Positions 31,247 to 64,000 are shown, counted from the first letter of the stretch. The stretch: DNA of 64,000 nucleotides from Candidatus Absconditabacterales bacterium (GCA_937958645.1 CALGNI010000038.1:3647-67646); one strand, 5' to 3'. Notes: generated from the letters alone by a model not told the origin. Program-made: numbers and translations.

Positions 31247-31510
31247 AGAGAAAGAGATAATAATTCGTCAGTAGGGATGCTTCATTAAAGCATCCCGGAA
31301 TCAAGAATTCTCCATCATTTAGTATATAGGAAATTCTAAATACTGACTGTACAAGCTGCTTATGAACGAGTGATTAAAAAAAATAGTATATATTTGCTGA
31401 ATACATATAAATACTCCAATTACTGACTAAGCAATAAGTTTTGGAGTACTAATTCTATATTAAAAAGATTGAATCAAAAACCCGAAGGATTATTTTATTT
31501 TATTACGCTC

Positions 31511-32290
31511 ATGATCCTAGAACCAAAGACATGATTTGTTGGAAATGCCTTGTGAGATGAGGTATATGATTTGCAAGTAAAGGAGGGAGTTTTCCCAACT
31601 CATTGTGAGGAGGTTTTGGTGATGCATAAGTGAAATATAAAGAGCATGAGGCCTCAAGAAATCTGAGATGGTATGGAGGTGGTAAAGCTAAAAGCTAAAA
31701 GCTGAAAGCTAAAAGATGAAATTGACAAGGTGAATCTTATTTCGGGGATGAGTATCTATCAATGGTTTGATGAGAATACATGAACGCAGGAAACATATGC
31801 TTATGGAATTGATAGATCTAAAATTGATTGGATAAATGATGTTTGCAAGGATTTATGATTATGAGTATCATTGGAAGATGAAAAATTTGTAAAAATCACC
31901 AACTGATCGTTCCAGATTCCTGAGGATTGATTGCTCTCTTTCTTCTTTTGACTAGTGCTGATTTATGGTAAATTTACCATCGTTGATGAGGTCTTGAGAC
32001 ATGCAGTAATTCAACTTCCTTTGGTGGGGAGTATAGCAATGCAGGAAGAAATTCTGTTAAACTTAAAAGAAGTATTATTTGAGCAAGAATTGTATCTAAC
32101 GATTACTTATCTCACACAAAAGTCATGACAACTCTTGCAAGTCAATATTCATGATGAAGAAATCTTAGATATATGGAGTAGTTGGCTATGATGAGAAGCT
32201 CATGAGTATGATACTCTCCGCAATGAGATCAAAAATTTTGCTCAAATCGATGAAATTGATAACTACGTTTTGAAATTCCTTCATAAATAA
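31511..32290 (+). CDS. hypothetical protein
   Basis: 780-nt table-25 ORF with many TGA and a TAA stop. It contains the 'aagctaaaagct' repeat in frame. No family recognised. Confidence 0.4.
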
Positions 32291-33031
32291 GTACATTCAA
32301 TCAAAGAGTAGAGTCATTCAAAAAAGGCACACGTCGTCATCCAGAAGGAGGTACGACTGAAGGATCCAGTCATTTTGTAACCTTACTCCGATAATTGATA
32401 TATTTTAGAGGCAATGTCTTAAGACGATAGTAATTACCTCAGGTAAAAATTATTTATGCCTAGATTCCACGTCGCAAACGACCACTACTCACTTCGTTCG
32501 CAGGGTCTTATCCGACTCTGAATGACGAGCTTTAAATTTTAAACTTTACCTCTGGCTAGAACAAACAAAGCGTGAATAGCAAAGAAAAAGGTGCAACAAG
32601 CGAAGCAGAAACTTTTGTCATGACCAAAAACGAGATCAAATGAGGGGATGAAGAGAGACTATACCAATCCCAAGTGAAACTCATATGAATGGTTCATGAG
32701 ATCAGGGAAACGAGTATGTGATAGAACTTCATGCCGCGAAGATCCTGATGGATTTAGACTTATCCGCAAGCCAAGTGGAGGAGAACCAACCTTCGTAGAG
32801 ATAGGGAAGCAGAGTTGGGCGTATAGAAGGTATTTAAAGAGGGCGCATAGGATGTCGTTGAAGTAATTGATAATGGAAAATTGATTATTGAAAATAAATG
32901 GGTGCGAAAACACGGTAAACTACTATATGCAAAACGAAAAGATACATCAAGACGTCATCCCGTGTACACGGGATTCAGGATCTTCGGATCTATTCGTCGC
33001 AGAGCTCCTTATAGCTCTCGAATTCACCTGA

Positions 33032-33105
33032 AGGGGGGTGGTGTAATGGGAACACAGAGGTCTTCGGCACCTCGGTTATCAGTTCAAATCTGATCCTCTC
33101 TGCCA
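33032..33105 (+). tRNA. tRNA-Arg (anticodon UCG), CCA encoded
   Basis: Hand-folded cloverleaf: acceptor agggggg/cctctct (with G3.U70 and G5.U68), U8, D stem gtgt/acac with loop aatggga, anticodon stem gaggt/acctc with loop cTTCGgc, variable ggtt, T stem atcag/ctgat with loop ttcaaat, discriminator g, cca. Confidence 0.8.
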
Positions 33106-33161
33106 TTGACAATTTACATGAAAAGTATATAAAAATTAAGCTTTAGGGTTTAATTTTTTTT

Positions 33162-33782
33162 ATGTGAGAACGAGATAAATTATTACGTCATGATGACTAT
33201 GTAATTGAAGTTGAAGGTATATCAATCCTTATAAAGGATAAGGTATTTAGCCCAGATCCAAGAATTACTCAATCATCCAATATGCTTTTGAAGCATTTGC
33301 CTAATGTTAGCTGAAAAGAAGTATTAGATATTTGATGTTGAACAGGAATAGTTTGACTAACTGCTGCCAAGAAAGGAGCTAAGAGAGTTGTGTGTAGTGA
33401 TGTAGATATGCATGCTATTCTCAATGCGAAGGAAAATGTAGCTTCTAATAATTTACAAAATAATATTGAGGTTTTACAATCCAACTTATTTGATGCTTTA
33501 GATTGAAAATTTGATTATATCTTTGCTAATCTTCCAATATTGGATGAAGTTTGGAATTCGAATGTTCAAAAAAATAATTCTACTTCAACTCTGATTCAGA
33601 GATTTCTTAGAGAAAAAAGTAAGTATCTTTCAAAGAATTGAAAAACTTATTTAACACGAGCATCATTTGCAGATATTGAGCCTTTATATTCATATTTTAA
33701 GAGTATGAAGCTTGATGTTAAGGAAATCAAAGAAACTAAAGCGTGATATGATCGATATATTTTCGAAATATTAAGTCACTAA
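33162..33782 (+). CDS. class I SAM-dependent methyltransferase (HemK/PrmC-like small MTase domain)
   Basis: Motif I 'VLDIGCGTGIVGL' (TGA at 33333 and 33339 are Gly), 'CSDVD', and an NPPY-like 'FANLPI'. 206 aa. Confidence 0.7.
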
Positions 33783-33886
33783 TTTTCTATCTAAGTGCAT
33801 TGATTTTATTTTGCTATTTTTTTGTGAATACATTGTGAAAATGCTTGATTACAGGAAAAATAAATATTGAAAATTAACCAAAGCAA

Positions 33887-33952
33887 GTCAATATCTACAT
33901 TACTAATATGCTGATGTAAGGAGTAAAGGAGAGTAGCATTCTCTCTGAATTT
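33887..33952 (+). repeat. roughly 65-nt structured direct repeat (copy 1)
   Basis: 'gtcaatatctacattactaatatgctgatgtaaggagtaaaggagagtagcattctctctgaatt'. Nearly identical to 35437-35500. Its first 16 nt also occur at about 6803-6820. Confidence 0.8.
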
Positions 33953-34132
33953 GATTATGAGACATATAGATTTTTAGAGATCTGGCTTTTCGGGGTGGGA
34001 TTTTTTTGTTTTGATAGATTTTGCCTATCTTAGAATTAGACTTGTAGTTACAAGATCTTGTTAATCTTTTAGTATTGACTATATATCAGAAGGCAAAGTT
34101 GTTTTTGGTTATATTTTATTTTAGTCATATTT

Positions 34133-35392
34133 ATGTCTCTTTTGAAAAGTGGATTTGCTATCATTCTTATTTTTACCTCCTTATCATTATGAGCTGCATT
34201 TGCTACATCCCATGATATTGAAGATCTATATATAGATGGAGAGTTAGTTCCTCAGAGTATTTTAGATACATTTGAACATATTAATCCATGACACTTAGAT
34301 GGAAATAGTTGAGTACAGAATTATGGTTACCGAAAAGATGAAAATAATGTATATATTCATGATGGTCACACTCAAGATTGATCCCCTCAATATTATACTT
34401 TACCAAATGTTGATCCAGATACGTTTGAAATCATAGAATTAGAAATAAAACCTGAAAATCTTTGGAGAGCATACTATGATATGTACACTACTTGGTGAGT
34501 GTCAATAGGATATACTAAAGATGCATCACACGTGTATTACAAAAACAAGCTTATTCCCAAAGCTGATCCATTGACTTATAAAACTCTTCTATGAGGGTAT
34601 TTTATAGACAAAGATAGCGTCTACTCTCATAATGATGATATGCCTAGCCGTCTAATACATGTAGATGTAGATACGTTTGAAGTGTTGTGAGTAGATGAAT
34701 TATGAGAAGAGTGGGAAACTTCGAGTTGGTTTTATGGTAAATATTATGCTCGTGATAAGAATAATTTATTCTACAAAGGAAATATTGTTCAATGAGCTGA
34801 TCCAGATGACTTTACAAAACTGAATGATTTTGGTTATTATGTTAGTAATGATTTTGTTTTGCACCACTGAAGGGTGATTCCTTGAGTTAGCGAATCAGAT
34901 TTTTCCACGCAAAACTACATAGTCCCTTTAGCTCCTGAGGAGCCTGTCAAAGGAACTTCTCCTGATGGAATTGCTTTGTCTCTTCCATGAGCCGATACTA
35001 CAAAAAACTATTGATTCTATGTCTTTAACAATAAGATATTCACGCCTCACTGAAAAGTTGTTAGCTTTCTTCATACAAACAAATTGAAACTTCATGAGCT
35101 ATGAATTACTGATGACAATATGTTTTATATTGAGTACTACCATACATATGGTCAATTTTCTTCTTATCGTGAACATTTTAAGATAAAGTTTCTTCCCAAA
35201 CATGCAGATGTGATTGATCTTTATATGAAAGAGAGTGTAGCATCTAGGATGACAGTGGAAACATTGGTAAAGAAACTTGAATTATATAAAGAAAGTAGAC
35301 CAGAGGACTATATGGAATGATGAACGAATGATGTACTAATATGGGCACTAGTAGATCATGTATTGGAAAATGGATATACGTATTATCAGTAG
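34133..35392 (+). CDS. DKNYY-domain secreted protein
   Basis: Signal peptide 'LLKSGFAIILIFTSLSLGAAFA'. Repeated 'D.SHVYYKNK', 'DKDSVYSH', 'DKNNLFYKGN' motifs. Track ORF 35120-35320 is in frame. TAG at 35390. Confidence 0.7.
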
Positions 35393-35436
35393 ATTTCTGA
35401 TTGAGATCTTTTTTTATGGCATAAATTATCTATGAA

Positions 35437-35500
35437 TCAGTATCTACATTACTAATATGCTGATGTAAGGAGTAAAGAAGAGAAGCATTCTCTTTGAGTT
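35437..35500 (+). repeat. roughly 65-nt structured direct repeat (copy 2)
   Basis: 'tcagtatctacattactaatatgctgatgtaaggagtaaagaagagaagcattctctttgagtt'. Its second hairpin differs from copy 1 by a compensatory G-C to A-T change. Confidence 0.8.
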
Positions 35501-35671
35501 CTTGCTTGAGAATAGTTCAATCGTTCTCTCTGCTTGTTGCATTATTTGTTGCATTCTCAATTTTTATCAGTATCATTAGAGCAGTTAAGAAATAAGCTCC
35601 CTTTGAAGCGAAAGTCGACTCCATGTCGTGTAGTGATTAAGTTCCACTACTAGCTCCTTAGGGGGCTTTTC

Positions 35672-36376: not shown

Positions 36377-36886
36377 AAGATATGTGTGGATAAAATGTAT
36401 ATAGCTCAACTATATATAAGTGAGAAATAAGACCAAGCACAATCTCAAACTTTATCATCAATTTGCATCTCATTTTCAGTTCCATATATGCATCTTACGA
36501 GAGTAGTGACGTGATCCATCTATTTTGAAAAAAATATGATCACATCTGCTAGTATCTACCTAGCTTCAAGATAGTACTTATCAGTTGGTACGGCAAATAT
36601 ATAAAATGTTTGGATCTTACGGAGTTGGATACTAGTGCAGTTAGTAAACTTCTTACAGACTACTTATACAGATTTCTTCGCTTTCCAACTGATGTTTTAG
36701 TGCAAGTAAAGCACTTGAATTGGTGCGAACATATTGCTTTTAACAGTTGTAATACGCTTTCTGAACTTAAGAAAATTGATGGTAAGCATATATGAAAATC
36801 TAGCCTGAGGGTTAGATTTTTTCTTTTATAAAAAAAACACCAAGGTAAACCTTGATGCTTATGCGACTTAAAGAAGCCACATGAAT

Positions 36887-37564
36887 TTAATGATAGAATT
36901 GTAGCTTAATCGCGGTCGGATCGAATCCAACAGTAATCTGCGGAGAGGCATAGCCAACTGCAGCAGTTGAACCATCCAAATAGATTGCATTGTTGCAGTC
37001 TTGTAATCGTAGAGCTTCACTAAGCTCATAAAAGGTAACGGGTTGATTTGATATAGCTACTACTAGTGAGCCATCATCTCGGTATCCAACTCCAGATCTA
37101 ATATATCTAGATGGATTGGACTTGTTGTGTAAGTTCTTTCCTTGGAGTACTAGGATCATCCCATTCTGAAACCCCCATAAGAGATATTCAGGTGTATGTA
37201 TCCAATCTTCATACCGTTGGAGGATCATCTTGCCTTGCTTTGTTAATCCAAATATTCCATTATCATTACTGAAGTTGCCAGGATAGTCACTTGGTTCTAC
37301 CCAAGGCTTTTTCTGTAAGGAAATACTGTAATACTTTTGAGTTTTTTTATTATAACGATGTTCTGTTACAACATAACCACCAACAGGTGTCCCATCTCCT
37401 ACAAACAATGGACCATTGACCACATAAGAGATATGCTTAGTGCAGTCCTGGAACTTACCAAATCCAATATCATAATTATTGTTTGGGTATAGGAAGGTAA
37501 AGTTCTGAGCGAAGGTACTTGAAAGTACACAAACGAAGGTAACTAATGTTAAGAAGTTTTTCAT
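36887..37564 (-). CDS. phosphodiester glycosidase family (DUF2233) secreted protein
   Basis: Intact track ORF. Signal peptide ends 'SSTFAQ'. 'RSGVGYRDDGSLVVA', 'AIYLDGSTAA'. No TGA among about 20 Gly codons. Confidence 0.7.
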   Translation of the reverse strand: MKNFLTLVTFVCVLSSTFAQNFTFLYPNNNYDIGFGKFQDCTKHISYVVNGPLFVGDGTPVGGYVVTEHRYNKKTQKYYSISLQKKPWVEPSDYPGNFSNDNGIFGLTKQGKMILQRYEDWIHTPEYLLWGFQNGMILVLQGKNLHNKSNPSRYIRSGVGYRDDGSLVVAISNQPVTFYELSEALRLQDCNNAIYLDGSTAAVGYASPQITVGFDPTAIKLQFYH

Positions 37565-38388: not shown

Positions 38389-38415
38389 GCACTAGCGTTA
38401 GCTAGTGCTTTTTTT
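38389..38415. terminator. terminator hairpin
   Basis: gcactagc/gctagtgc stem followed by T7. Lies downstream of the minus-strand 38450-39910 gene, but the T-run is on the plus side. Confidence 0.6.
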
Positions 38416-38449
38416 GGTTTTTCAATAATGAAAAACACGCCTCGATTTC

Positions 38450-39910
38450 TTAGGAATCTGTGGTATTAATATAAACTTCAGGATAAATTTTTGATTGTGC
38501 AATAAATGAATTTTGACCTGTATCATCAATCACGATTTCTGCTGTCGCTCAAGCATAGTCATATTTACTCACTACTGGTCGAGTAATTCACAAAGATCTT
38601 AGATACTTCTTTTTTAGTTCAACATTTCATCAAGTCCATACGATAATCTCTTTTCATTCGGCTTCGTATTTTTTGAGGAGCTCAACGACCTTTGGTCTTA
38701 ATTTTTGCGTTCACTCTTTCCCAGAATGAATCCCTACATAATCAATCAGTGTACCATCTACATCTACATATACTCATTCTATTCTTTCTCATTTCATTAC
38801 TTCAGGTAGATCTAGATTAATATGTAGTATATAGTCCATCGCCTTATCAAATGTTTCGAGTCATGGAAAGAATTTTTGCACTTCTTTTAATCGTTCTACT
38901 TGTTCGCTTTCAGTCATATCATAAGGATCTTCTTTGTGTTGTAGAGTGTGACGAAACTTTCATATCCTTCTACCTGCTTCACTAGATATTAGAGCAGTTA
39001 AATTTTTTCACTTTTTATTTTCTATAGTTTTTTCTGCTCATCATATGTGTTTACTAGATAGAGATTCTTGTTTTAGATTATTTACAAGTAATTCATTCGG
39101 GTTAAATGGAAGTTGTTTAAGTTTGCTCTTAGGATAAGAGAGAAATAATTTAATTTGATCAGCTTTTTGGGGAGATAATTTCTTGATATTATCTAGTGTC
39201 AAAAACGACATAAGAACAATACTCTCTTTTTTATTTTTTGCAAGAAGTTCCAGTGCATCACTGAGTCAAGATAGATCCGTTCTACTTCATCAATCTTTTT
39301 TGTATTCACATATAATAAAGTGAGTATTTTTATATCTATGATCTATTTCCATATGTAGATTAGATAAATAGTCTTTTATATTCTCAGTCTCTTCATGAAA
39401 AGTGATTGAACTAAGTATCCTGTTATGACTATTCTCATTTATCTTTTCATGATCTGATTTCTTTGACATTAATTCCATTGGATTAAATGGAAGTTGGATA
39501 TACTCAGTGTTTGGATATGTAAGAAATAGCTTCATACTCTTTGAAGTTTTTGCTTGTTCATTCTCCATGAATTCTTGAGGAAAAAATCACATTAATACAA
39601 TTTTTTCATTTTCATTTTTAGCAAGTAATTCTAATGAATCATCAAGTCATTTCATGTCTAGTCTATTTCCTCAATGATGATCGTGTGTAGCATAAAGAAA
39701 ATGAGCATTCTTATATTTCTCACGGAAGTCTTTTCCTTTCAAATCGTCTTTATTTACATTGTTTCCAAACCAAACCTTCATATCTTGATCAAAGGTAATT
39801 GAATTCCAAATTGGCTTATCATTTAGAATCGAATAAATTTCATTTCTAGCAATTGCTAAATCTTCTTGGGAAGGGAACTTACATTCTCATCATGCAGGTG
39901 CTTCAGACAT
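38450..39910 (-). CDS. hypothetical protein: two tandem roughly 130-aa repeats plus a C-terminal HAD-like domain
   Basis: 1461-nt table-25 ORF. Repeats: 'HFLYATHDHHGGNRLDMKGLDDSLELLAKNENEKIVLMGF...LPFNPMELM' vs 'HFIICEYKKDGGSRTDLSGLSDALELLAKNKKESIVLMSF...LPFNPNELL'. HAD motif I 'VYVDVDGTLIDY', later 'IVWTGGN' and 'VIDD'. Confidence 0.6.
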
Positions 39911-40006
39911 AACAATGATGTGTAAAAAATAAAATCTAACTATAGCTCTAAATATTTTATTACCAATAGGGGGATTGGTTGTTCTGTTGTCATAAGATTA
40001 CAACTA

Positions 40007-40762
40007 TTATATTTCTTTTGTATGATTCCGAATAAATTCAAACAAACTATATATGCTTTGATACATATTTTGATTTTCAATTATAAGAACATGAGGAGTG
40101 TTAGATCAATCAAAAAACAAAAATGATATTTTATTTGGTCAGTAAAGATTTATATCAGCATTTATATCAAAGGGGAGTTTGTCGATAAGTTTAGATTCTC
40201 TGTTGTGTTCTTTATCTTTGTCTTTTAGTTCTTGAATATTGGTATTATGTTGCGACAATATCCTATATGTTTTCAATTTATTCTTTTTTCTGGCTCTTCT
40301 GTAAACTCATACATGCTGTAACAACTTCTCATCAAAGTACTTAGGCGTTCATAGAATTGATCTCATATCTACAGTGCTGTTAGCGAAATCTTGAAACAAC
40401 TTTTCTAATCAAGAAGATCATTCTAGGTAAGTAACTTTAGGTTTTGATCACTTGGTACTTGAGAGCTCCAGCAATAGAGGGACAATCTCTTTGAATCATT
40501 CGGTTTTGCTCTCAATGTGCTTGAGAAGCAACTCGGGAGATACCACAGAAAAAAATGAAATATCTTTTCTTTTTAATTCTTGAATGGTTCATTCTCAAGT
40601 TAGTTTTTTTAGTAGAGCATATACCGTGGTTCTTTTTTCTTCTGCATGTCTTGCGACCGTACTCGCTGGTGCACTTCACAATTCCAAAACTGTCAGGTAG
40701 ATCTTTGCCTCCTTTTCGCTCATTCATCGATCTTTTAGTGCTCAGATAAGGTTGTCTTGCAT
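40007..40762 (-). CDS. TrmB-family transcriptional regulator
   Basis: 'GMSEKEAKIYLTVLELGSAPASTVARHAEEKRTTVYALLKKLTGEGTIQE' is wHTH. The C-terminal domain is similar to 56332-57138 and 57547-58287. Track ORF 40512-40727 is an out-of-frame artefact. Confidence 0.7.
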
Positions 40763-40939
40763 GACTAAAGTGATGGTAAATACTTCACTAAGTATACCTG
40801 TATCTAGAAAAAATAGCAAAAAAACCATGGCCTGTTGCTATTTCCTAACAACACATACCACACTCAGGCTATTGACAAATTGATTTAAATAATTATTATA
40901 TAAACACTTCTCGATGTTGAGAAGTGCTAAAACAAAAAT

Positions 40940-41503
40940 ATGTTGCAAAATATCTTAAAAACCGCTTTCATTTGCTTTTTATCTCTTTCTTTCAGTTCTT
41001 TGTTTGCTCAAGATGAGCCAATCAACTTGACTGATATGCATCAACGAATACAAGAGTTGGAAAAGAAACTAGCTGAGAATGGAGATGAAACAGTAGCTGA
41101 AATTGAAATTGATGAAGGCTGGAAGATGAGTATCGGATTTACTTTAAGTCCATCATTCATCTACACTCTAGAGGATGATGCTCCGACACAGCTTGGGGCA
41201 CCATTGTTAGCTACCTTCTCTTTAGCTAAGGAGAAGTGGTTCATCGGGGCTTACTATAGCTTAGCGAGTAATGAGCCATCAATATTGGTGAATTATTCAC
41301 TAAATCCCAAGCTTGGTGTATATTACTTAGGGAGTATCAATCCAAAGATTGATCTGAAGTATAGTTCTATAGGTCTTACAACACCCTTAGGAAATGCGCT
41401 AGGATTTATCGAGGTGGGAAGGAATTTTGGCTCAGAAGCTTCAAGTACTAAACCTTACCTGGTTGGAGGAGTGTTAATCTTCTTCATGAAGGACTTAAAC
41501 TAA
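40940..41503 (+). CDS. hypothetical secreted protein (possible small beta-barrel)
   Basis: Intact track ORF. Signal peptide ends 'SSLFAQ'. Alternating hydrophobic pattern. No TGA. Confidence 0.55.
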   Translation: MLQNILKTAFICFLSLSFSSLFAQDEPINLTDMHQRIQELEKKLAENGDETVAEIEIDEGWKMSIGFTLSPSFIYTLEDDAPTQLGAPLLATFSLAKEKWFIGAYYSLASNEPSILVNYSLNPKLGVYYLGSINPKIDLKYSSIGLTTPLGNALGFIEVGRNFGSEASSTKPYLVGGVLIFFMKDLN

Positions 41504-43042: not shown

Positions 43043-43060
43043 ATGTTTTGATTTTTTATT

Positions 43061-45456: not shown

Positions 45457-45479
45457 ATATATAAAATTGTATGAAAAAA

Positions 45480-51961: not shown

Positions 51962-51995
51962 AGGAGTAGTGCTATTTTAAATCTTATGACATAAT

Positions 51996-52766
51996 ATGGA
52001 TAAGATTATAGAATTTTATTGAACAAGATCTAAGAATGAGGTTGGTATTCTAAATACAGTTCTAGATGATCTGAATGAACTCTTAGTAAATGTTGATAGA
52101 TGAAATTCTCACAATATTTCATGTATATTATATTGATCTTTAGCAACCTATGACCAAACGAAAAATTCCGATATTGACGTAATGTTTATGAAGAACGGAA
52201 AATCATCTAAGGAATTGTTTGATCAATTGAAATGATGACTGATAGATATTTCAAAAAAAAACAAACTAGAAGTTGATGAAGAAGTCCCGTTCAAGAGTAA
52301 GTTGATATTCAGTCATAACGAAATTTTAGAGTCTTTGTTAGCAAAATGATTTCCAAACATAGATTGAAAAATAGAAGTTCCAAATATCATTTCAACTAAG
52401 GATCTTAGAAAAAAATCCACAAAAATTAGATTATGAACCAACATTATAACCACGCCAAATATTTGAATTTTCCATTCAGTAAGTGAAAAAGAATTTTATG
52501 ATCAAATAAAGTATAGATGATGATTGCTCTTACAAAGCTTGGCTAGAAACCTCTTTACACAAAATTTTAAAAATCAAAAGATCACTCAGAATGACCTTCT
52601 TGAAGTGTTGGCTACTAGCAATTGAAATGAATGAAGGAAGCATCTCTGATATAAAATTGAAAGGCCTTTTGTAAGAAAATATTTAGTTAACTTATTGGAA
52701 AAAAAGTACTCCAATCAGGAGTTAGATAGCATGGAAAATAGTTTATGAAGTCAAATATTTTTATAA
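51996..52766 (+). CDS. nucleotidyltransferase (Pol-beta superfamily) domain protein
   Basis: 'ILYGSLATYDQTKNSDIDVMF' matches the GS...D.D NTase motif. Confidence 0.55.
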
Positions 52767-52779
52767 TATACTTAAATTT

Positions 52780-53595
52780 ATGAAAATTAATTTACAAATA
52801 CTTTGATCTTGATGATCAATCCCTACGCCTAGAATATGATCAAAGAGTGAAATATCAAAATTGGCAAGAGAAGTCTGACATCCATATAAGAAGAACTCAA
52901 GCTGTCTGTGAATTCCTGAAATTCATGCACTTATTGATTGTCCCGAAGATATATCTGATTCATTAAATAAAATAGACTTTCCTAATGTAAAGCACTTATT
53001 CTTAACACATTGGCATCCTGATCATACATTTTGATTAAGAGTGTTGCTTTCAAGCGTATTCGATCCAATAGATAAGAAAATTGATGAGCCAATACAACTT
53101 TACTTTCCAAAAAAAGTTTATCAAGATTTAAGACAACATTACCCTTCAATTGATTATTTTGTTGATGAAATGTGATTTTGAGTTGTGAATTTCCTAGAGC
53201 ATTGAGAATCAGTAAATATTTGATGAGTTAGCATCACAACTATATGATATTCATGAGAATGATCATGGGTAAATTGATATTTAATTGAGTCAAACTGAAA
53301 GCGTGCTTTATATTCACCTTGTGAGACAATTTTATTCGAACAATTTGAAATTAATGATTTGGATATACTTATTACTGAGTGTTGAGTTTTTTCTTTTGAT
53401 AAGGTGAAAACTGAAATATCTTTTCCAAAAATGATCAAAAATATAGAGAGATTACAGCCAAAAAAAACGTATATAACCCATATTGAGGAAGTTGAATTAG
53501 CGAGATGGGGGTATGATTACTTGCAAGAAATGAAGGAAAAATATTCAGATATTCCTTTCGAATTCGCTTTAGATTGACTAAAAATAGACTTATAA
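52780..53595 (+). CDS. MBL-fold metallo-hydrolase
   Basis: 'ILGSGGSIPTP', 'LFLTHWHPDHTFGL' (HxHxDH). Confidence 0.7.
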
Positions 53596-53596
53596 C

Positions 53597-54955
53597 ATGT
53601 CAAAAAGTGTAACTATAGTCTGATGGGGAACAAGTGCAGCGATAGCTGCATTGAATTACTACAATGAATGATATAACATTGAAGTTTATACTAAGTGACC
53701 AGAACCTACGTTAGACAATATTTCATCATCGGATATTGACTTTTATGCTTCATCAATGACTTGATGAACTGATATTCAGCGTTTTATAACTTGAATTGAG
53801 TGAAATCCATGGAATTTTTGTGCTTTTAGTTCACACCAATGCGAAGACTGGTCTAAGATGTGGAAAACTACAATTTCCGAATGATGATGGTTAGAAAAAG
53901 AGGCCTCGCTTTATTCTAAAAAGATGCAAAATAAAATTAAAAATAGAGCTTTATTTTACAATAAAATGTGAATTGAAGAGCAAACTACTAACTATAATAA
54001 ATGGATTATTAAAAATAAGGAAAGTTTATCATTACGAAAAAAATGTATCATTGACTCACCAGAGCTATTTAAATGAACTGAAATACAGTGATTTGATTCT
54101 GGTGTGTTAAAACTCTTTTTGAATCAGAAATATTTTGAAAAAACATATTTCAAGTTCAAGAGACTTGATCTTTTAGCTAAAAAATTGACGTTTAAAAGTA
54201 TCGTAAACTGACATGAGATGTTTTGATTTCGAGAAAAATGAATAAATATATCTAAATTTACTTATCTATTGGTAAAGATTAAAGACCTTTTAATGTCAAA
54301 TTGAGTAAAATTTTATTTTGACAATGAAATTAAAAGCATTTCCTTAAATCGTAAAAAAATTATTGAATGAATAGTGTTGAGTTCATGAGAGGTAGTTCAT
54401 AATCAAAATTTTTCATTTCATTTGTGAGCTTATAATTCTAGTTCAAAAATTAATGCAGAGTTACAAGACATTGTTCCAGTTTGATGATTGTGGTCAATTG
54501 TTGAGATAGGAGACGAAGTCGATCCATTCTATCTTAAACATCCAATGAAACTTCACACGACTAAAGAAGGAGATATCTTCTGACGAGATATTAATATTTC
54601 CAGGATAGATCATCCAAATAAAAATTTATTTCTAGCATGATATTGATATATCGTGAGTGAGCATGCATGAAAACAGAACAGTGATATTGAATTTGCAAAA
54701 ACTAGACTTCATTCTCGATTTGAAACGGAGATTTGTAGACGGTTTAAGAAGAAAGATATTAAATCTATCAAACACATAGAAAATATTTGTTATAGGTCAT
54801 TTACACCAACGGACAGAGAGACATTATATGCATATGAAACATGAAAGTGATGAAAAGCAATATTCTGCTCAGGTTGAAATACTTGAAGCACTACAATTAG
54901 TTTTAAAGATGCAAAACTATGTATTGACATATTGAATAATAAAGTTAAGAACTAA
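53597..54955 (+). CDS. FAD-dependent oxidoreductase (DAO/amine-oxidase-like)
   Basis: N-terminal dinucleotide fold 'VTIVGWGTSAAIAALNYYNEGYNIEVY'. C-terminal 'FCSGGNTGSTTIS'. The start lies 1 nt after the MBL stop codon. Confidence 0.55.
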
Positions 54956-54980
54956 TTACTTTTATCTTTAAGTGTATCTC

Positions 54981-56291
54981 ATGGAATGAAATGACAAAAA
55001 TTTACCTAATGGTTATGAATCTACTCCTGACGATGAGAAAGTTACATTATGAAGTAAGAATTCTTTATTAGATTCATTACAATTGAATCGAGAGGAATAT
55101 TTGAACAATGCAATAGATACTGCAGAATCAGAGAAAAAAAAGGCATATTTTATGAGAATAAAAAAATTATTAGGATTGAAGGATTTATCTAAAGAACCAT
55201 GAAATCCTATCGCATTAATCATTGATAGTATAAAAAATGATGAATTTTATAGTTCTTTTGAAGATATTGAGGCTTCAGAAATTGCTTCAGAATGGGCGAC
55301 GTTTGATGTATTTAATTTTCCTGAGGACCATGTTGCTAGGAGAACATCAGATAGTTATTTCTTGTTAAAATCTAATAATGTTAGTGAAAGTATATTGCTT
55401 AGACCTCATACTTCGATCGTCCGATATGACTATTTAATGACGATGGATTGAAAGAAAAAACTAGAAGAAGAAGGGGAGATTAAGATATTATCATCTTGAA
55501 AAGTATATCGTGTTGATACTTTGGATCCAACTCATCATGAATGTTTTCATCAAATTGACTGATTGAGAATTGTTAAAAAGGACAAAGAAATTATTACACA
55601 AGAAACATTAAAAGATGTTTTAACAGTTACAATTAAGGCAGTTTTTGGTGACGATGTAGAGTTTAAATTTTATGAGGATAGCTTTCCATATACAGTTGAG
55701 TCATTAGAAGCATATGTTAAATTTGAGGATAAATGGATAGAAGTTTTAGGCGCATGAATAGTGCATCCTTCAGTTTTAGAGAAATTATGAATTAATTCTG
55801 ATGAATATAACTGACGGGCTTATTGATTTTGAATCGAGAGACTCGCTATGGCATTAAAGAAAGTGCCTGATATTAGAATTTTTTGGTCAGAAGATGAGAG
55901 AGTAACTAATCAGCGATGAAACTTTGAGCCGTATGAAGAAATCAGTAAATTCCCACCAGTTTACAAAGATATATCTTTAGTTGTTCCTAAAAATAAATTT
56001 GTTGAGGATACTTCTGAATGAGCTGATCCTTTTGATTTAAATGAAACAACAGAGTCAAATTTCTTTGAATTTTCAATTATTGCTAGAAATGTATGATGAG
56101 ATCTTATTGAAGCAGTAGAAATTACTGATATATTTAAGAATGATGCTAAATTTTGAGAGGAGTTGATGTCTATAACATTAAGAATTACGTTTAGATCATT
56201 AGAAAGAACTCTTACAAACGAAGAAATCAATAAAATGTACTTTGATATTAGACATGAAATTGAAAACTGATTAGGGTATGAATTAAGATAG
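54981..56291 (+). CDS. monomeric phenylalanyl-tRNA synthetase-like protein (PheS catalytic core fused to an FDX-ACB domain)
   Basis: 'FNFPEDHVARRTSDSYF', 'LLRPHTS', motif 2 'GKVYRVDTLDPTHHECFHQIDGL', motif 3 'AYGFGIERLAMAL' (TGA at 55824 and 55830), then 'FPPVYKDISLVVP...ITLRITFRS' (FDX-ACB). 436 aa. Confidence 0.8.
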
Positions 56292-56331
56292 AAACGATTT
56301 TTAGTTTGTCTTTAGTGTTAACATAGATTGA

Positions 56332-57138
56332 ATGGATGAAAATATCATACGTTCTCTAATAGGACGATGAATGACCGATAAGGAAGCCATAATATACTAC
56401 GCGCTTCTGGAACTATGAAGTTCTCCTGCGAGTTCAATTTCGAGATATTTAAATCAAAATAGAACTACAGTCTATACAATACTAAAAAGAATGAAAGAGA
56501 GATGAATTGTTCAAGAGTTAAGATCAAAAAAAACTTTATACTATTCAGTTATCGAGCCCGATAAGTTATTTAGAGACCTTTCCAATAGAGCGACAGCATT
56601 TAGCTCTATAATTCCTGAGTTATTAAACTTAAGTAAGTCTTTTGATTCTAAGCCAAAAATTCAATATTTTGAATGAAAAAAATGATTTCACTTTCTCATG
56701 GAAGATATTTTGGCAAGTAGATCTGATGTTAGATCTTTGCGAGGATCATCTCCGTTTTATACAGATGAGGAATTCATTTCTCGACTATCAAAATCTGCGC
56801 AAAAATATAGAGAAACTTTGCATAATAATTGATTTGTCTCTTATAGAATTTTCTGAATTAGTACTTTAAATACCCACATTGGGGATACATTAAAAAATGA
56901 TAAGTTATTCCGTAGAGAAATGAGAATAGTTGAAAATCCTATATTTGATATTAAAACAGATTTGGTGATATATGCAAAGGATAAGGTTTCATTATCATTT
57001 TTTGATGACAACTGAATTCCACATATTCTAATAATTACTAATGTAGCTATTTATAAAACTATGCTGAGCATCTTTAAGTTTCTTTGGTGAAGTTGAATAG
57101 AATATTCAGATGATTTTTTCCTTTGAAAGAAAAGATAA
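56332..57138 (+). CDS. TrmB-family transcriptional regulator
   Basis: 'GMTDKEAIIYYALLELGSSPASSISRYLNQNRTTVYTILKRMKERGIVQE'. Track ORF 56642-56869 is out of frame. Confidence 0.7.
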
Positions 57139-57214
57139 AGCGCTCAAGTAGTTGTTATATGAGATCGTTGACTATTCTGTATGTGCTTTTTTGAATTGAT
57201 TTGAACAACTTCTT

Positions 57215-57485
57215 TTATTGCGTCGCACTGAAGTGATGAGGTAATATTCCGAATATATATTAAATCAGAAATATCAAAACTTTTTTATAAGTTATATATG
57301 ACTAAATAATTCTACTTCTTCGTGATAGTAATGCTTTCCCAGACTTTCGAACGAAAACAAAGGTCTATCTTCGAGGAACGAGAAGAAAAATTGGGCGAAT
57401 AGTTTCATTTCATGAAACCGCTAATCAAAGATTAGTACTCCGTTCGCTTGCGACGGAGCAAGTCCAATCTTAGATTTTTGTTTTT
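57215..57485 (+). mobile_element. structured element copy B (rearranged, intergenic)
   Basis: The core 57313-57485 aligns with copies A and C and carries an extra hairpin insert. The 5' hairpin module (57215-57255) is present but inverted and displaced by about 57 nt. Confidence 0.65.
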
Positions 57486-57546
57486 ACTTCATTGCAAATT
57501 TGAGTATCTATTATATAGATATGTTGCGATTTATAACAGTCATATT

Positions 57547-58287
57547 ATGATTCAAAAAGTACTACAAGATATTTGATTTAGTGATAGGGAGGCTAAAATT
57601 TATTTAGCTTGACTTGAAACATGACTTGCTCCAGCTAGTAAGATTGCTAAATATGCTAATGAAAGAAGAGTGACAACATATCAAACTTTGTTACAAATGT
57701 CGAAAAAACAATGGGTAAAACAGGTAGTTAAGAATAATGTGTCTCAATACGAGATGGTTTCACCAAAAGAGTTATGAACTATTTATACTAAGAGAGTTTG
57801 ATTATTAAACGAAAAAATACCAGAGATGGTTGCGTTAATGAACAACTTTTCTTCGAAACCTATTGTGAAATATTATCAATGAAGAGAACAGCTAAAAGAG
57901 CTATTTAATAAGATCGTTTTTGATTGATTTAAAATGAATCAGGATGATTATTTTTTAAGTTTTCTATGAACTTGAGACGTAGATAAAGAATTTTCTAATC
58001 GGCTTTCAACTGAATTTAAAAGATACAGACTCACTTGTCCTACTAGATCAAGATTTCTCCTTTCAGAGTGAGATCATGAATATTTAAAATATAATATGAA
58101 ACATCACGAATTTCGTTTGGTAAAAGACCCTATATTTAAAATTGCAAATCAGATAGTTATTTATGGAGATCTTAAAGTAGCTATTTTGATGTATAACGCT
58201 GACGAATTATCTTGAGTAGTTATTCAAAGTCAAAGTTTTCATGATGCTCTAAAATGAATATTTTATACTATTTGGAACGTGCTTTAA
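57547..58287 (+). CDS. TrmB-family transcriptional regulator
   Basis: 'GFSDREAKIYLAGLETGLAPASKIAKYANERRVTTYQTLLQMSKKQWV'. 246 aa. Confidence 0.7.
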
Positions 58288-58438
58288 GAATTCAAAACTT
58301 ATTAAATTTGTTTTGTTGTTTATTTTTACAACACGTAGCTTTTAAAAACCTTGTTATTAAATAAATCTCTACTAATATGAACTTTAATACTACATTGAAG
58401 TTTTTTTAGATAGTATTTATTTGCTCATATCAATTCAA

Positions 58439-59203
58439 ATGAAGCTTACAAAAAAAAGTTATGAACGTGAATCTCATAGTATTTGGAGGGCAATGTATAC
58501 TATGCAGATGGATACAATCAAAAAGTATGATTGCGTTTCTAAAGAAATTTTGAAATGAATTCACAAGATCGGTTTCGATCCCAAAAAAATACCTAATGCT
58601 CGTAATATATCTAGAAAATTAATATGATTAACATGATGGTCTCTTTGTGATGCAACTAGTCCTTTTATGACACATGATGATTGGTTTTCGTGTTTGATAA
58701 ATAAGAAATTTCCTGTTACCAATTATATTCGTAAACATAAGGATATACTCTATACTCCATTGCCAGATATGTTTCACGAATATTTTTGACATATGCCTCA
58801 AATGTCACTTGACTTCTTTGCTAATTTAGAGTATAAAATGGCTAGAATTCATCAGAATGCAATTTCATTAGATCTTAAGATAAAATTATATGATTTCTCA
58901 TGGTGGACTATTGAGTACTGAGTACTTATGGAAGATTGAATTCCAAAAGCAGTCTGAGCATGATTGTTATCTTCTCCTTGAGATTTGCGTGATTTTGTTG
59001 ATTGAAAATTTGAACTAAAAAGATGAACTCTTGCTTCTTTGATATCTCATAAGCCAAGTCCACATCAACAGCATAAATTTCTTTTCTATTTTGAATCACT
59101 TCAAGAGTGGGATACATTGCTAGATGAATACGTTGCGTTTTCAAAGAAACAATCTAAAGTAAAAGAATGATTGCCCTCTGGAAGGGTAATTAGTGATGAA
59201 TAG
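58439..59203 (+). CDS. phhA: phenylalanine-4-hydroxylase (aromatic amino acid hydroxylase family)
   Basis: 'PLPDMFHEYFGHMP' (iron His pair), 'WWTIEYGV', 'GAGLLSSPGD'. Confidence 0.8.
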
Positions 59204-59232
59204 TGATTTTAGTTATTTACTGATCTAATTAA

Positions 59233-60375
59233 ATGGAAAACGTTAATGCAAGTTGATACATAAATAAGAATGTCGAAATTAGAAATGACAAAAACATTAT
59301 TCAATTGTCGTTGTGACGTAATCCTTTAGGAATGCATCAAGCTTTGAAAGATTTTTATAAATCTTGAGAAAACTGACTTCTTATTCCATCTGAATCATAT
59401 TGAGATCCAAGTTTAACAGCTTCGAAATCGCTTATTGTAGAATGATTGTGATTGCAAGATGTGACTAATGATCAAATATTACTCGATTGAAATTGAAGTT
59501 ATGGTATGTGAGATGAGATAACACGTATTTTGGCAAATCAATGATTCAAAACTATAACAGTTTTGCCATACTCATTTCCAAATGTATGAGAACGAGCGAA
59601 AAGACATAAAGTACAGTACAAGAGCTATTGAGAAGAGAAAGATTCAATACAAGAAAATTTTGATAAATTGTTGAATAGCTCTAATAATTCTTTTATCGAG
59701 AGTATAGTCTATATTGATTTTCCAAATAATCCAACATGATTTAGTGTAAATGTTGAAAAACTTTACGATTTGGTAACCAAAGTTAAAAAATCAGGTTGAA
59801 TTGTCTTCTTGGACTGAGCATTTTGAGAATACAATGAAGATTTTTCACTAATAATATCGGAAGTTGTAAGAAGATGATGAATTGTTATCTGATCTACTTC
59901 AAAAATGCATTGAATTCCTGATATGAGAATTGGTCGATGAGTTCTCCCAGAGGACTTAGTTTGAAAGACAGATTCGTTGGTATTTTGAATTAATCATTTT
60001 ACAAAAGTGACAATAAAAAAACTCTTTGAACAAGATGAAAATAATGAATCAATTTCATCACTTCATATTCAAGATTCTATACAACACAATACTAAAGTTA
60101 ATAAAATCTTAACCCAAGAGCTTGATAGGTTGTGATATACTGTTCTATCATCAAATTTGCAAGTACCGATTCAAACAGTAATATCGCATATTCATGAGGA
60201 TTTATATACTGTTCTGAAAAATGAATGAAAGATTGCTACTGAATCACTGCATCACTACAATAGCACGTTACTTGATTCTAAAAAATGATATGAGGAGACT
60301 TGAGTGCGCATGCTGACTCCACATGAAGATCAGTTAGATTTGGTTATAGAAAGATTTAAGAAAATAAATAAATAA
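59233..60375 (+). CDS. class I/II PLP aminotransferase (histidinol-phosphate/aromatic aminotransferase-like)
   Basis: 'YIDFPNNPTGF', 'GSTSKMHGIPDMRIG' (PLP Lys). Starts 30 nt after the phhA stop. Confidence 0.7.
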
Positions 60376-60411
60376 ATTTTGATGAACTTAGTTTTATTCT
60401 GTATTTATTAG

Positions 60412-61827
60412 ATGAAAGAAACATACTGAGCAGAAATAGAATTTTTCTCTACTAATAGCGATTGAAAATTAACATGAATTGACGCAGCATGATATGTTAA
60501 TAACTCACTAAATGATTCATCAAGCATGAAATTACATCATGATTCTTGTACGCATTTACTTGAGTTGAACTGAATCGTTTCTGAGGATTTGTCTCTAATC
60601 TTGAGTCAAATTGTGAATGACGTAGATGAGGCAATTAGATATGTTCATAACAAGGATCTTCATGTGCTGAATTCTTCAACACATCCAACTATGACTCATG
60701 CTGAAGCTTATCAAAATAATATTCGTAAGCCGATATATGCTTTATTAAGGCCTGCATCTCATGAAAATGATGTAAATATTCAGTCAGCATTACAGTCAAA
60801 TCATAGAAATTGGAAGCATGAACTCTCTTCATTACATGCTGGTATTCAACCATGGAATTCAATTGAAATAGACTCACTTCAAGAATCATACAATTCATTA
60901 CTTGCTACAGATTTCTTGATTCGTTATTTATCAGCAAATAGCCCATTTTTTGAAGGAAAAATTCAATGATGATTAGATAATAGATGGAGAATGTACGATC
61001 AAGAAAAGTGAATGTTATCAACCTCGATTTATAGTGACGAAACTAGTTGACTGATAAAAAAATATAATCATGATGAAATTACTCTTTCAAAATATCTTGA
61101 TGGTGTATTTTCTCAAAGCAATTTATTTTGAATATGAACTAAGAAGAGTATGTTTGTTCATCAATCACAAAATAAAATTTATGAAGTATTTTGAGATTCA
61201 GGAAAAGAGAAATTTTTGGACATAAATACTTTAAAAACACATACTTTAGATCCATTTGAATCATTCTCTTTTAATGAGCTGGCAAGATTTATACCATATT
61301 TCACTTCATTTTGAATTAGATTAGTTTGAGGAGAAACTATCACTTGAGAAGATTTTAAGCTAACGATGAAATATATACAAGAAAAAAATGAAACTAATCT
61401 GTTACGTATGTTTAAGAAGTATTGAATCAAATTTGCAGTTGAGTGAAGATGATGATCAACGGTGATGCCTGAATGAGATGATTATTCACTTATGTTATTG
61501 CCTTTAATACTCCAATCATATGCTTTAAAGGAGTCCTCTGCTGTAAATAAACGGATAAATCAGCAGCAATGATGATGGGACACGATCAGTAAATTAAATA
61601 AATCTGTTCTAGATTGATGAATTTCTGAAGAGTATACAGAATTTGCTTTGTGATTAATGGAAGTATTATTCGATTCTACTCAAGAATTGTGAGATTCTTC
61701 AGGGTTAATTAACCAATCAGTAGAAAAAGCAAAGGATATGATTAGACTCAATGAAAATAAGGCTCAAAGAGACATTAAGCTTTCAAAAGGTAGTGTTGAT
61801 AAATATACTGAGATGAATTTACTATAG
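60412..61827 (+). CDS. glutamate-cysteine ligase family 2 (GCS2) type carboxylate-amine ligase
   Basis: 'YGAEIEFF', 'LLELN', 'SLHAGIQPW', 'LSANSPFFEGK', 'AVEGRGG'. Track ORF 60589-60969 is in frame. Confidence 0.6.
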
Positions 61828-61836
61828 TATAGGCTT

Positions 61837-62952
61837 ATGATTATAAAATCTTGTGAAATCAGAGTTATATCAGTACCAATGAAGCAATCACTTCTTGTAT
61901 CTTTTGGTGAACTTAAAGAGATTCAAACATTAATTATCGAATTAAAAGATGAGGATTGAAATATTTGATATGGAGAAAGTATTTTAGTGCCATTTCTATC
62001 TTCTTCATTTACGAGTTTTGATGTGTGAAGAATTGTTGCAAAAAAGTATTTAAAACCACTTGTGCAATGATATGAGATTGATGATTATGAAGACCGGAAA
62101 AAAACAATAAGTAAGTTTTCAAAGCACTTAGATCAGATATATTGATATGAAATGGTGAAAGCTTGATTTAATAATGCTTGTATTCATTTGTTGGCAAAAA
62201 GAAAATGACTGTCAGTTTTTCAACTATTCGATGTCAATAAGTCAGAATTTAATGCGCAAGAATCCATTTCAATATGAGATTTTGACTCTATTTCAGCTGA
62301 ATTAGATATATTGAAGAAAAAATGATACACCTTTGTTAAAATAAAAATATGAGATAATAGTGACCTAGATTTGCTATCGACTTTAATCAAATCAAATCCT
62401 TCACTTAAGATTTGAGTCGATGCGAATGCTTGATTCAATAGGTGAGATACTGATTCGCTGCTATTATTTGCGAAAAATAGTTGAGTAGCTTTTATTGAGC
62501 AGCCATTCTGAAAAGAAAGGCTTTTTGACCATGCTCAACTCCAACTATGATTGAAATGTTGAGTGAGCTTAGATGAATCAATAATAACAATTAACGATCT
62601 TAGTGATGCCATTAATTTAGTTTCTTGTAGAATGATAAATATAAAAATTTGAAGAGTCTGATGATTGATGCATTGAATTAAATTGTATGAGCTTGCAGAA
62701 CGTAACCATATTGATGTACGAGTTTGATGAATGTTAGAAACCTGAATTTGAAGAATATATAGTCTTTGCTTATGAGCGCTGATCCAGAATGAAGTTTGAC
62801 ATGATATTTCTGAAGTAAATACTCGATATGAACAAGATATTGTGAAAAAATCATACAAAATAGAAGAAGGAAAATTGAAAATACTGAATTTAACTAAAGA
62901 TATCGAAATTGATTTTGAGGTTTATGAAAAATATACTATTGAAATCTTTTAA
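61837..62952 (+). CDS. enolase-superfamily enzyme (OSBS / N-succinylamino-acid racemase / dipeptide epimerase subgroup)
   Basis: 'FVKIKIG', 'IGVDANAGF', 'FIEQPF', 'VSLDESI', 'INIKIGRVGG', 'GGMLETGIG'. Confidence 0.75.
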
Positions 62953-62971
62953 TCTTAACCTAATCTAAAAA

Positions 62972-63928
62972 ATGAATTCAATACTTACCTCTGTACACAA
63001 TGAAGTGCCTTGAGTACTGCATCTGGATTCTTGAACACAGTGACCTGTATTCTGAGTTAGCTCATGCGTTCATTGATGAGAAGTGACTTGAATAAGAATT
63101 ATTGAAGAATTTCTTAAGAGTAATAAAGAATGAAGAATAAAATTAATAAAATGATCGTTAATGTTAATTCTCGCAAATGTAGATGCGTATAAGTCATTTA
63201 TAGATGTTACTTCTTCGTTAGATAATACTATGACTAAGGAGAAATTAGAGGCAGTGAAAAAATATAGATATCTAGATGAAAATATGAATCGCTGTACAGC
63301 TGAAGATAACTTGAATGTATCCATATCAAGAGAAGTGAAAAGAGTGAATGAATTATCAAAAACATTAGAAAATATTGATATCTTGTTGGATATACATACC
63401 ACCAGTACACCTTCAGACTCAATTATGATTTATTCTTCTTGAATGGGTCGTGAAAAATATTCTGATATATGTAACACAAAAGAACATCTGATAGATATTA
63501 CTGATCATCTAGCTTGAAAACCATTTTTTGATATGGTAGAGCGTAGTGGAGGAGTATGACTAGCAATTGAGTCTTGATATGAACTAGATGATCAATGATA
63601 TAAAGTATGATTTGAAAATCTAATTAGATTGCTAGATGAGGAATGAATGATAGAAGTAGAATGATGAGTCGATCAATTTTACTCTCCTAGAAAAGAAAAT
63701 AGAAAAATACAGATCTATGATCATATTGTCTTCAGAAATAATGATTTCTCCTCAATTTATCTTAAAGATAAGCCATTGCATCATGGACAAATTCTTCCGG
63801 AAGGGACGTATATGTGATTTGATTGATTAGCTGATATATTCTTGAGTGAGGTGTCAATTATAATTATGCCGAATGTAGGAGTAAAATATATATGAGAAGA
63901 GTTTTGTTTTTTGTGAAGATTAGTCTAG
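62972..63928 (+). CDS. succinylglutamate desuccinylase/aspartoacylase (AstE/AspA) family deacylase 2
   Basis: 'GVSSCVHGGEVTG', 'LDENMNR', 'LLDIHTTS'. Track ORF 63161-63442 is in frame. Confidence 0.65.
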
Positions 63929-64000
63929 TAAAATAAACTAAAAAATGAGTTTGTAATGCATGTCAATATATATATAATATTTTTACTAAAAACATTGCTA

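Follow-up and report, generated by a model that had tools for sequence, protein, structure and literature searches.

The codon TGA, read as glycine in Absconditabacteria, is used very unevenly along a stretch of 64,000 nucleotides of Candidatus Absconditabacterales bacterium (referred to as the window; C38:3647-67646 of the metagenome-assembled genome G000), and its share of the glycine codons of each gene appears to record, in several layers, composition, constraint and the history of the genes, and not a single island. This reading is given modest confidence here. Three signals would be superimposed. The first is a species-level setting, with the core genes of G000 at the low end, hence TGA-poor NYN, PIF1, mutL, glyA and rplA; the second is a gene-level setting kept across species, by which conserved proteins would use less TGA; and the third is a recombination-prone region right after a tRNA gene with the anticodon UCG, which is longer by ~37.5 kb of genes in G000 than in one congener. 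Within this region, a block of twelve genes would represent an accessory amino-acid-metabolism cluster, long written in the code with TGA as Gly and CGA/CGG as Trp under a lower-GC, TGA-preferring regime, that entered from an unsampled recoded lineage and whose composition is still short of that of its host. The interspersed TGA-free genes would form a separate class, some of which look like imports from standard-code Bacteroidota, whilst at least two, encoding secreted proteins, may be kept TGA-free by selection.

G000 is a bin of 1.55 Mb in 105 contigs, with estimates of 91.5% completeness and 4% contamination. It was compared with four congeners (G001, G002, G003 and G004), of which G003 is the nearest by protein identity, and with a wider set of 60 relatives. 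Open reading frames (ORFs) were called under code 25, with a longest-ORF heuristic that leaves some shadow ORFs in the genome-wide statistics, TGA and GGN codons were counted per gene, and the genes of the window were annotated by Pfam scans. Coordinates are in window numbering unless a contig is named, and those above 64000 lie past the window's end on the same contig. The recoding of TGA itself is evident from long ORFs, which appear only with TGA translated as sense, from conserved glycine positions that carry in-frame TGA (181 TGA-TGA Gly sites are common to G000 and G003) and from a tRNA with the anticodon UCA (tRNA-Gly) on contig C75. The prfB model for release factor 2 (RF2) gave a single match below cut-off (257 vs 370 bits), which in an assembly that is 91.5% complete does not prove absence.

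Genome-wide, TGA makes up 0.39 of the TGA and GGN codons, but the per-gene fraction spans 0% to 95%, and a homogeneity chi-square of 4464 with 916 degrees of freedom places the dispersion far above binomial sampling. There are 44 genes without any TGA (at least 150 residues and at least 10 Gly codons), compared to 1.05 expected under a GC-conditioned binomial, and the twelve consecutive genes of the block have fractions of 0.74-0.95, whilst the longest run at 0.7 or above in 2000 shuffles was five. These results bear out the uneven use claimed in the initial annotation, whose hand counts were off by one or two codons at most when computed per gene. The low users are rplA (0/20), PIF1 (4/33), DUF2233/NAGPA (0/20), glyA (9/43) and ftsW (16/42), and the heavy users are a S-adenosylmethionine-dependent methyltransferase (8/11), a HAD fusion (21/29), an M19 dipeptidase (21/30), a PheRS-like protein (17/23) and a group II decarboxylase (37/44). 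The TGA fraction declines with gene GC (rho -0.43), but a binomial model on GC at third (GC3) and at first and second codon positions (GC12) lowers the chi-square only from 4464 to 3786, and GC by itself was rejected as the cause. With similarity to the codon usage of ribosomal proteins as a further term, the chi-square is 3261 (917 genes). The use of CGA for Trp was considered as a second clock and rejected, being only weakly correlated with TGA use (rho 0.10).

A step in TGA use and composition had been placed at ~31.3 kb. Heterogeneity and AT-rich DNA are indeed found downstream of this position, but the sharp GC step sits at 50.2 kb, with GC in 2-kb windows of 0.31-0.40 across 31-50 kb and of 0.28-0.30 from 50 kb on. 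The single-split likelihood is flat over ~23-44 kb and therefore does not single out a step at 31.3 kb, and likelihood segmentation of the contig by TGA use gives about nine segments (Table 1), among which TGA-free genes are interspersed.

The low TGA of the first of these segments, at 3.9-22.9 kb, reflects a species-wide setting. In DNA searches, 3.85-33.16 kb aligned in the same order, with 66-85% identity, to G003:C23 and to sections of G001:C1, G002:C58/C71 and G004:C33/C76; within it, the low-TGA block matches G003:C23 at 66-83% DNA identity, with about twice the TGA fraction in the G003 orthologues, and 24.8-33.16 kb is collinear with G003:C23, G001:C1, G002:C58 and G004:C76. When matching core genes are compared within the genus, the TGA fraction varies about two-fold and declines with rising GC, from 0.60 in G003 (GC 0.32), 0.57 in G001 (GC 0.35) and 0.43 in G004 (GC 0.36) to 0.30-0.34 in G000 (GC ~0.39) and 0.32 in G002 (GC 0.41); ftsW, with the count given above in G000, has 26/41 in G003 and 39/46 in G001. 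The TGA state differs at 37% of the Gly sites common to G000 and G003, where GGN in G000 stands opposite TGA in G003 180 times and the reverse is found 41 times. A derived loss of TGA in the core of G000 was not adopted as an explanation, as two higher-GC and three lower-GC species give no polarity.

The NYN/PIF1 pair, previously suggested to be a possible recent import from standard-code donors, is refuted as such by its conservation in the same order in G003, with 82% and 69% amino acid identity respectively (73% and 70% at the DNA level to G003:C23), like its neighbours. Both genes contain recoded codons, with 2/10 TGA in NYN and three CGA in PIF1 in addition to its four TGA, and the G003 orthologue of PIF1 has 18/34 TGA. 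The pair is TGA-poor because the G000 core uses half the TGA of G003 (0.30 vs 0.60). A gene-level component is superimposed on this species-level setting: across 25 orthologue pairs of G000 and G003 the TGA fractions are correlated (rho 0.65), indicating that a gene-specific component of TGA use is conserved, and the fraction in G000 declines with protein identity (rho -0.65).

Among highly expressed genes TGA is indeed avoided, as seen in the ribosomal-protein operon on C27 (0.23, compared to 0.39 genome-wide) and in EF-Tu (3/40), and the TGA-free rplA has codon usage like that of highly expressed genes (99th percentile). It is nevertheless unlikely that expression alone, through avoidance of a poorly decoded TGA in proportion to expression level, accounts for the pattern. 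Likeness to ribosomal-operon codon usage is only weakly related to the TGA fraction (rho -0.08), PIF1 and mutL are TGA-poor despite lying in the lowest 2% of this likeness, and rplA itself has 0/20, 3/18, 3/18 and 8/20 TGA in G000, G002, G004 and G001 respectively. The TGA-free genes are stricter than EF-Tu, one having no TGA among 156 Gly codons, and a two-fold core-wide difference between species cannot be an expression effect.

Conserved gene order with the four congeners ends right after the tRNA (~33159), so the transition at the tRNA that had been proposed holds for gene order but not for composition, which shows no step there. In G002:C58, AsnRS directly follows the tRNA and is 86% identical in amino acids to the AsnRS of G000 at ~70.7-72.0 kb; G000 carries ~37.5 kb extra between the two genes. 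In G003:C23, the tRNA is followed by an ArgRS-like block, and in G000 the same block, with GC of 0.30 and TGA fractions of 0.7-0.9 in both genomes despite their differing cores, spans 72.8-80.4 kb and follows a second tRNA, Arg(GCG). This second low-GC block also contains amidinotransferases, DUF917, a second M19 dipeptidase and a GNAT gene. NAGPA, the HAD fusion and TrmB adjoin the same ftsW-mnmA neighbourhood in other recoded lineages, and composition is clearly atypical at 50.25-63.93 kb and only weakly so at 33-50 kb. A search for a repeat of the tRNA 3' end as an attachment (att) site found no match to its 26 nt with up to three mismatches in the window and no 14-20-nt match to either tRNA on the whole contig. 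Among the genes of 33.1-70.6 kb there is no Pfam match to an integrase, recombinase or transposase; the proteins at 41713, 48271 and 53597 and a 148-residue ORF have no Pfam match of any kind.

The tRNA therefore borders a changeable region and not a classical integrated island. As in tRNA-associated genomic islands, there is a tRNA border at which conserved order ends exactly, extra DNA that is missing from close relatives, atypical composition and accessory metabolism genes, but here an integrase, a repeat of the tRNA 3' end and a single boundary are all missing, and the region mixes three or more compositional classes, with part of its content ancestral at the locus in related lineages. What stands of the large accessory island long under code 25 that had been suggested is the insert of ~37.5 kb starting at the tRNA and the deep recoding of the twelve-gene block; the mosaic structure and the lack of att repeat and integrase do not agree with it. 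In G002:C58 (L019), an insert of ~81 bp before tRNA(UCG), at ~6610-6710, duplicates the first 11 nt of the tRNA and resembles a trace left by an earlier insertion there.

The strongest departure from the core is the twelve-gene block, which is the largest low-GC stretch of the assembly (GC 0.29, compared to a mean of 0.362 and a standard deviation of 0.023 in 5-kb windows). Its four-fold sites have a GC of 0.19, compared to 0.29 genome-wide, intergenic GC is 0.249 vs 0.328, and every gene lies 1.7-3.6 standard errors above the prediction of the GC model. The ratio of TGA to GGA is 10:1 with a T:G ratio at four-fold sites of 3.8:1, compared to 0.58:1 and 1.9:1 in the core, and this excess of TGA over the four-fold ratio indicates a different codon regime in the block, not merely more A+T. 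Three of the twelve genes (decarboxylase, aminotransferase and PheRS-like protein) were searched across the 60 relatives; all three are absent from the four congeners, and two, the decarboxylase and the aminotransferase, count as absent from all 60, where the former has only remote matches (one full-length at 29% identity, one short and weak) and the latter one weak match at 26% identity. In the decarboxylase, 21 of the 37 TGA fall on Gly conserved in a standard-code homologue and three of the four CGA on Trp, which supports, for this block, the proposed long evolution under an altered code. The most likely source of the block is a low-GC lineage that shares the code and has yet to be sampled; family members with GC of 0.27-0.31 and heavy TGA use exist. 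Horizontally acquired or AT-rich accessory DNA that has yet to ameliorate retains codon usage of its own and a lower GC, as the block does, but here the reassigned stop codon is an extra marker in both directions, being saturated in the block and absent from genes of standard-code style.

A low-GC, TGA-rich state could also arise with no transfer at all, if the block and the other TGA-rich genes were long-resident, weakly expressed and fast-evolving and had drifted to an AT-rich equilibrium, with G-to-T changes turning GGA into TGA, whilst selection or GC-biased gene conversion kept the core GC-richer and TGA-poorer. This is a doubtful alternative, although a serious one. It is consistent with the lower TGA of conserved proteins and the gene ranking kept between species described above, with the ArgRS-like block of G000 and G003, with the mobility genes and att repeat that were looked for and not found, and with the HAD fusion and adjoining TrmB, which are TGA-rich both in G000 and in L104 (18/27 in a HAD homologue that is 56% identical and lies beside NAGPA, and 9/12 in the TrmB, which was identified by its Pfam label). 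It does not readily explain why the tested block genes are missing from the four congeners, with only remote matches for the decarboxylase and aminotransferase in the 60 relatives, why intergenic DNA is AT-richer too, or why the block is the single largest low-GC stretch and not a common state of accessory genes; TGA:GGA 2.7-fold above the four-fold T:G ratio suggests codon preference and not only drift.

Several observations weigh against the acquisition of the block and the explanation built on it. Among 5.8 billion proteins, the best match of the decarboxylase has 42% identity and is encoded on a contig written in the standard code, and the search for a decarboxylase donor found none. The PheRS-like paralogue, which is not in the congeners, is patchy in other genera at 40-59% identity, and a conserved cluster around it in G007 was rejected, as a type I restriction system adjoins it there. 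Neither att repeat nor integrase or other mobility gene was found in the changeable region, and the copy of a genome-wide repeat inside the block is ~10% diverged from active copies, so the arrival of the block was not very recent. The ArgRS-like block, with the same low GC and high TGA, is common to G003 beside the same tRNA, demonstrating that such a state can persist in resident genes without recent transfer. Most of the variance between genes is still unexplained once GC and the expression proxy are combined (residual chi-square 3261, 917 genes). With these points included, several superimposed signals and a block from an unsampled recoded lineage remain the explanation of the TGA fractions to which we give slightly better than even chances.

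The abrupt change of composition at 50.2 kb, in a bin of metagenomic origin with 105 contigs and an estimated contamination of 4%, might also suggest that the low-GC block comes from another recoded organism and was misjoined during assembly or binning, but this is highly unlikely. Core genes lie on both sides of the block on one contig, the tRNA-side core and AsnRS being neighbours in G002, a second low-GC block further on is linked to the same tRNA in G003, and a single chimeric join would not give alternating blocks. In addition, a repeat family that is restricted to the genome or genus is represented within the block by a copy between its two TrmB genes (Table 1; matches on C42, C21, C29 and C38:27981-28121), and this copy, judged by its 88-91% identity, argues for the block belonging to G000 and against a very recent arrival as well as a chimeric contig. 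No repeat pair flanks the block at 50.2-64 kb.

The TGA-free genes interspersed with these segments differ in their histories, and the TGA-free state is not a reliable sign of recent arrival. Two had no counterpart in the relatives searched: the orphan lipoprotein gene, inserted into the collinear core, has no DNA match in the four congeners and no homologue in a word-indexed search of 5.8 billion proteins, and the ELFV-type amino-acid dehydrogenase just past the window end is absent from the 60 relatives, its nearest homologues being in Bacteroidota and others at ~41% identity. All three conserved Trp of the dehydrogenase are encoded by TGG, and its sequence fits an import from a standard-code donor, which at ~41% identity would either be unsampled or have contributed the gene less recently.

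Other TGA-free genes are shared with diverged recoded lineages. Homologues of the secreted NAGPA/DUF2233-like protein in seven other recoded lineages have 1/25, 0/27, 0/18, 1/24, 0/20, 1/24 and 0/19 TGA (3/157), giving 3/177 over eight lineages at ~43-65% identity, although the genes neighbouring these homologues have TGA fractions of 0.4-0.9; more distant homologues carry at least seven TGA. In two of the seven loci NAGPA adjoins the same ftsW-DUF212-mnmA neighbourhood. The signal-peptide gene nearby has homologues at 51-52% identity with 0/14 (L097) and 1/16 (L104) TGA, whilst the HAD fusion, at similar divergence, is TGA-rich in both G000 and L104. Since the core switches its TGA state at 37% of shared Gly sites at lesser divergence, staying TGA-free needs selection, and the counts point to selection rather than recent arrival as the probable reason for the TGA-free state of these two genes. 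Both contain CGA/CGG, including at a conserved Trp, and are not neutral between codes. If it holds, their lack of TGA through speciation despite CGA-Trp codons would suggest a specific cost or a regulatory role of UGA decoding. In an alignment of NAGPA with G003 L092:1800-2555, some CGG/CGA pair with AGA, as for Arg, and one CGA-CGG pair lies at a conserved Trp; core genes showed no such mixed pairing, which may be left over from standard-code spelling.

Across the genome, signal peptides are enriched among TGA-free genes (odds ratio 3.3, p = 4e-4, with a crude predictor), and these genes are all embedded between TGA-using genes on their contigs. The set includes proteins with SprB repeats and with Por_Secre_tail and CHU_C sorting domains of the type IX secretion system (T9SS), which are hallmarks of Bacteroidota, hinting at a Bacteroidota partner or donor; the gene with no TGA among 156 Gly codons is one of these, and in the SprB-like pair, GC at four-fold sites is only 0.11-0.17. 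A phage or viral origin was rejected, as a search of viral contigs turned up no relative of NAGPA or of the PheRS-like protein. A Shine-Dalgarno motif was likewise rejected as a mark of these genes, being present in ~2% of genes genome-wide and in none of the 44 TGA-free genes. By eye, the leaders upstream of 12741, 36887, 40940, 64075 and 69152 are A-rich, ending in ...AAAAATATG, and those of many other genes are T/C-rich.

It is conceivable, though rather improbable, that a defined class of genes is kept UGA-free by selection across diverged recoded lineages, comprising NAGPA, its signal-peptide neighbour and some 44 genes genome-wide, including T9SS-cargo adhesins. If so, decoding of UGA as Gly would be conditionally unavailable or harmful for this class, for example in a host-contact or growth state with limiting tRNA-Gly(UCA) or under a phage-imposed return to UGA termination, and the recoded codon would act as a genome-wide switch separating two gene sets. 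Code-11-compatible phages of Gracilibacteria/Absconditabacteria, without in-frame TGA, have been described (Liu et al. 2023, PMC10746230), and as with these phages, coding sequences free of in-frame TGA are found within the gene pool of recoded hosts. The genes described here are chromosomal, however, two of them adjoin one and the same core neighbourhood throughout several lineages, their CGA/CGG codons make them not fully code-neutral, and no relative of NAGPA turned up in viral contigs.

The tRNA at the border of the changeable region had been taken for a tRNA-Arg, which its features do not support. It has an A1:U72 pair, the discriminator G73, an encoded CCA and a D-loop (AATGGGA) without A20; a tRNA(CCG) at C73:9267-9339 shares A1:U72, G73, the encoded CCA and the missing A20, whilst the Arg tRNAs CCU, GCG and UCU are different, with an Arg-type D-arm. 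G73 and a missing A20 are the criteria for Trp acceptors in Absconditabacteria used by Shulgina & Eddy 2021 (PMC8629427). In 26 orthologue pairs, CGA in G000 stands opposite CGA (17 times), TGG (13 times) or CGG (three times) in G003 and never opposite AGA or CGT, TGG in G000 stands opposite CGA ten times, and CGT and CGC pair with CGT, CGC and AGA. From these elements and pairings, the tRNA is most likely a Trp tRNA for reassigned CGA/CGG codons. As CGA and CGG make up 49% of the CGA, CGG and TGG codons genome-wide, plain code-25 translation and a tRNA-Arg(TCG) label give Arg at about half (~49%) of the codons where Trp is most likely encoded.

Both reassignments agree with the published code of Absconditabacteria, in which UGA is read as Gly (Campbell et al. 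2013 and Rinke et al. 2013, as cited in PMC8629427) and CGA/CGG are predicted to be read as Trp (Shulgina & Eddy 2021, PMC8629427): TGA is found at conserved Gly, tRNA-Gly(UCA) is present, RF2 was not found in the assembly, CGA/CGG stand opposite Trp codons, and tRNA(UCG) and tRNA(CCG) both have G73 and lack A20. The codes in PMC8629427 are given per genome, whereas TGA use here varies from 0-95% between genes and about two-fold between congeners. If the layered reading holds, the share of a reassigned codon in each gene could be read as a historical and selective record that separates core, same-code accessory and standard-code-style genes and traces gene flow across the code boundary. The two-fold difference within one genus would then imply that a reassigned codon spreads and retreats quickly with GC, which bears on how stop reassignments become fixed.

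Table 1. Segments and features of contig C38 and related genes on other contigs. Window numbering, except where a contig is named.
Feature	Position	Strand	TGA	GC	Content and basis
Low-TGA core block with conserved gene order	3904-22863		0.19	0.386	NYN, PIF1, UPF0029, mutL, tdk, DoxX pair, glyA, secE, nusG, rplK, rplA; segmentation, Pfam, collinearity
Orphan lipoprotein gene	12741-13790	+	0/17		Inserted into collinear core
Segment	22975-35392		0.49		Segmentation
Intermediate-TGA core segment	22975-32866		0.49 (for 22975-35392)		IS200-like remnant, interrupted murQ, TPR, FtsX-like, mnmA, DUF212, ftsW, two small genes; Pfam, segmentation
Short intergenic repeat copies	24285-24476, 26711-26900, 28204-28385, 29898-30077, 31318-31500, 57211-57401
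tRNA, anticodon UCG	33032-33105	+			ARAGORN label Arg(TCG); Trp-type identity elements by inspection
Changeable region	33106-64000, on to ~70.6 kb				Mosaic of TGA-rich, intermediate and TGA-free genes; AsnRS resumes core
Segment	35672-37564		0.11		Segmentation
Secreted NAGPA/DUF2233-like protein	36887-37564	-	0/20		Pfam
Segment	38450-50078		0.61		Segmentation
HAD-fusion gene and TrmB regulator	38450-40828	-	21/29 and 13/14		Counts, Pfam
Signal-peptide protein	40940-41503	+	0/14		Counts
Twelve-gene same-strand accessory block	50252-63928	+	256/303 = 0.84	0.296	Group II PLP decarboxylase, nucleotidyltransferase, MBL hydrolase, unknown, PheRS-alpha/FDX-ACB paralogue, TrmB, second TrmB, aromatic amino-acid hydroxylase, aminotransferase, GCS2 ligase, enolase-superfamily enzyme, AstE/AspA deacylase
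Second, single-chain PheRS-like protein	54972-56291				Class II core and FDX-ACB; canonical pheS on C15
Diverged copy of small genome-wide repeat	57211-57401				88-91% identity; between two TrmB genes
Segment	64075-65674		0.00		Past window end
ELFV-type amino-acid dehydrogenase	64075-65307		0/38		Just past window end
Segment	65637-72008		0.40		Past window end
Second tRNA, Arg(GCG)	72087-72161 (C38 75733-75807)				Exactly at start of second low-GC, TGA-rich block
Segment	72362-80376		0.73	0.303	Past window end
Bacteroidota-hallmark TGA-free genes	C103:9770-16098, C104:4696-9224, C97:988-2907, C4:9869-11548		0

Short intergenic elements of ~110-190 nt are repeated many times over the assembly with 85-98% identity, frequently at the ends of contigs, and are probably behind much of its fragmentation. 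A direct repeat of 64 nt (33888-33951 and 35437-35500, 92% identical) flanks a DKNYY-family gene at 34133-35392.

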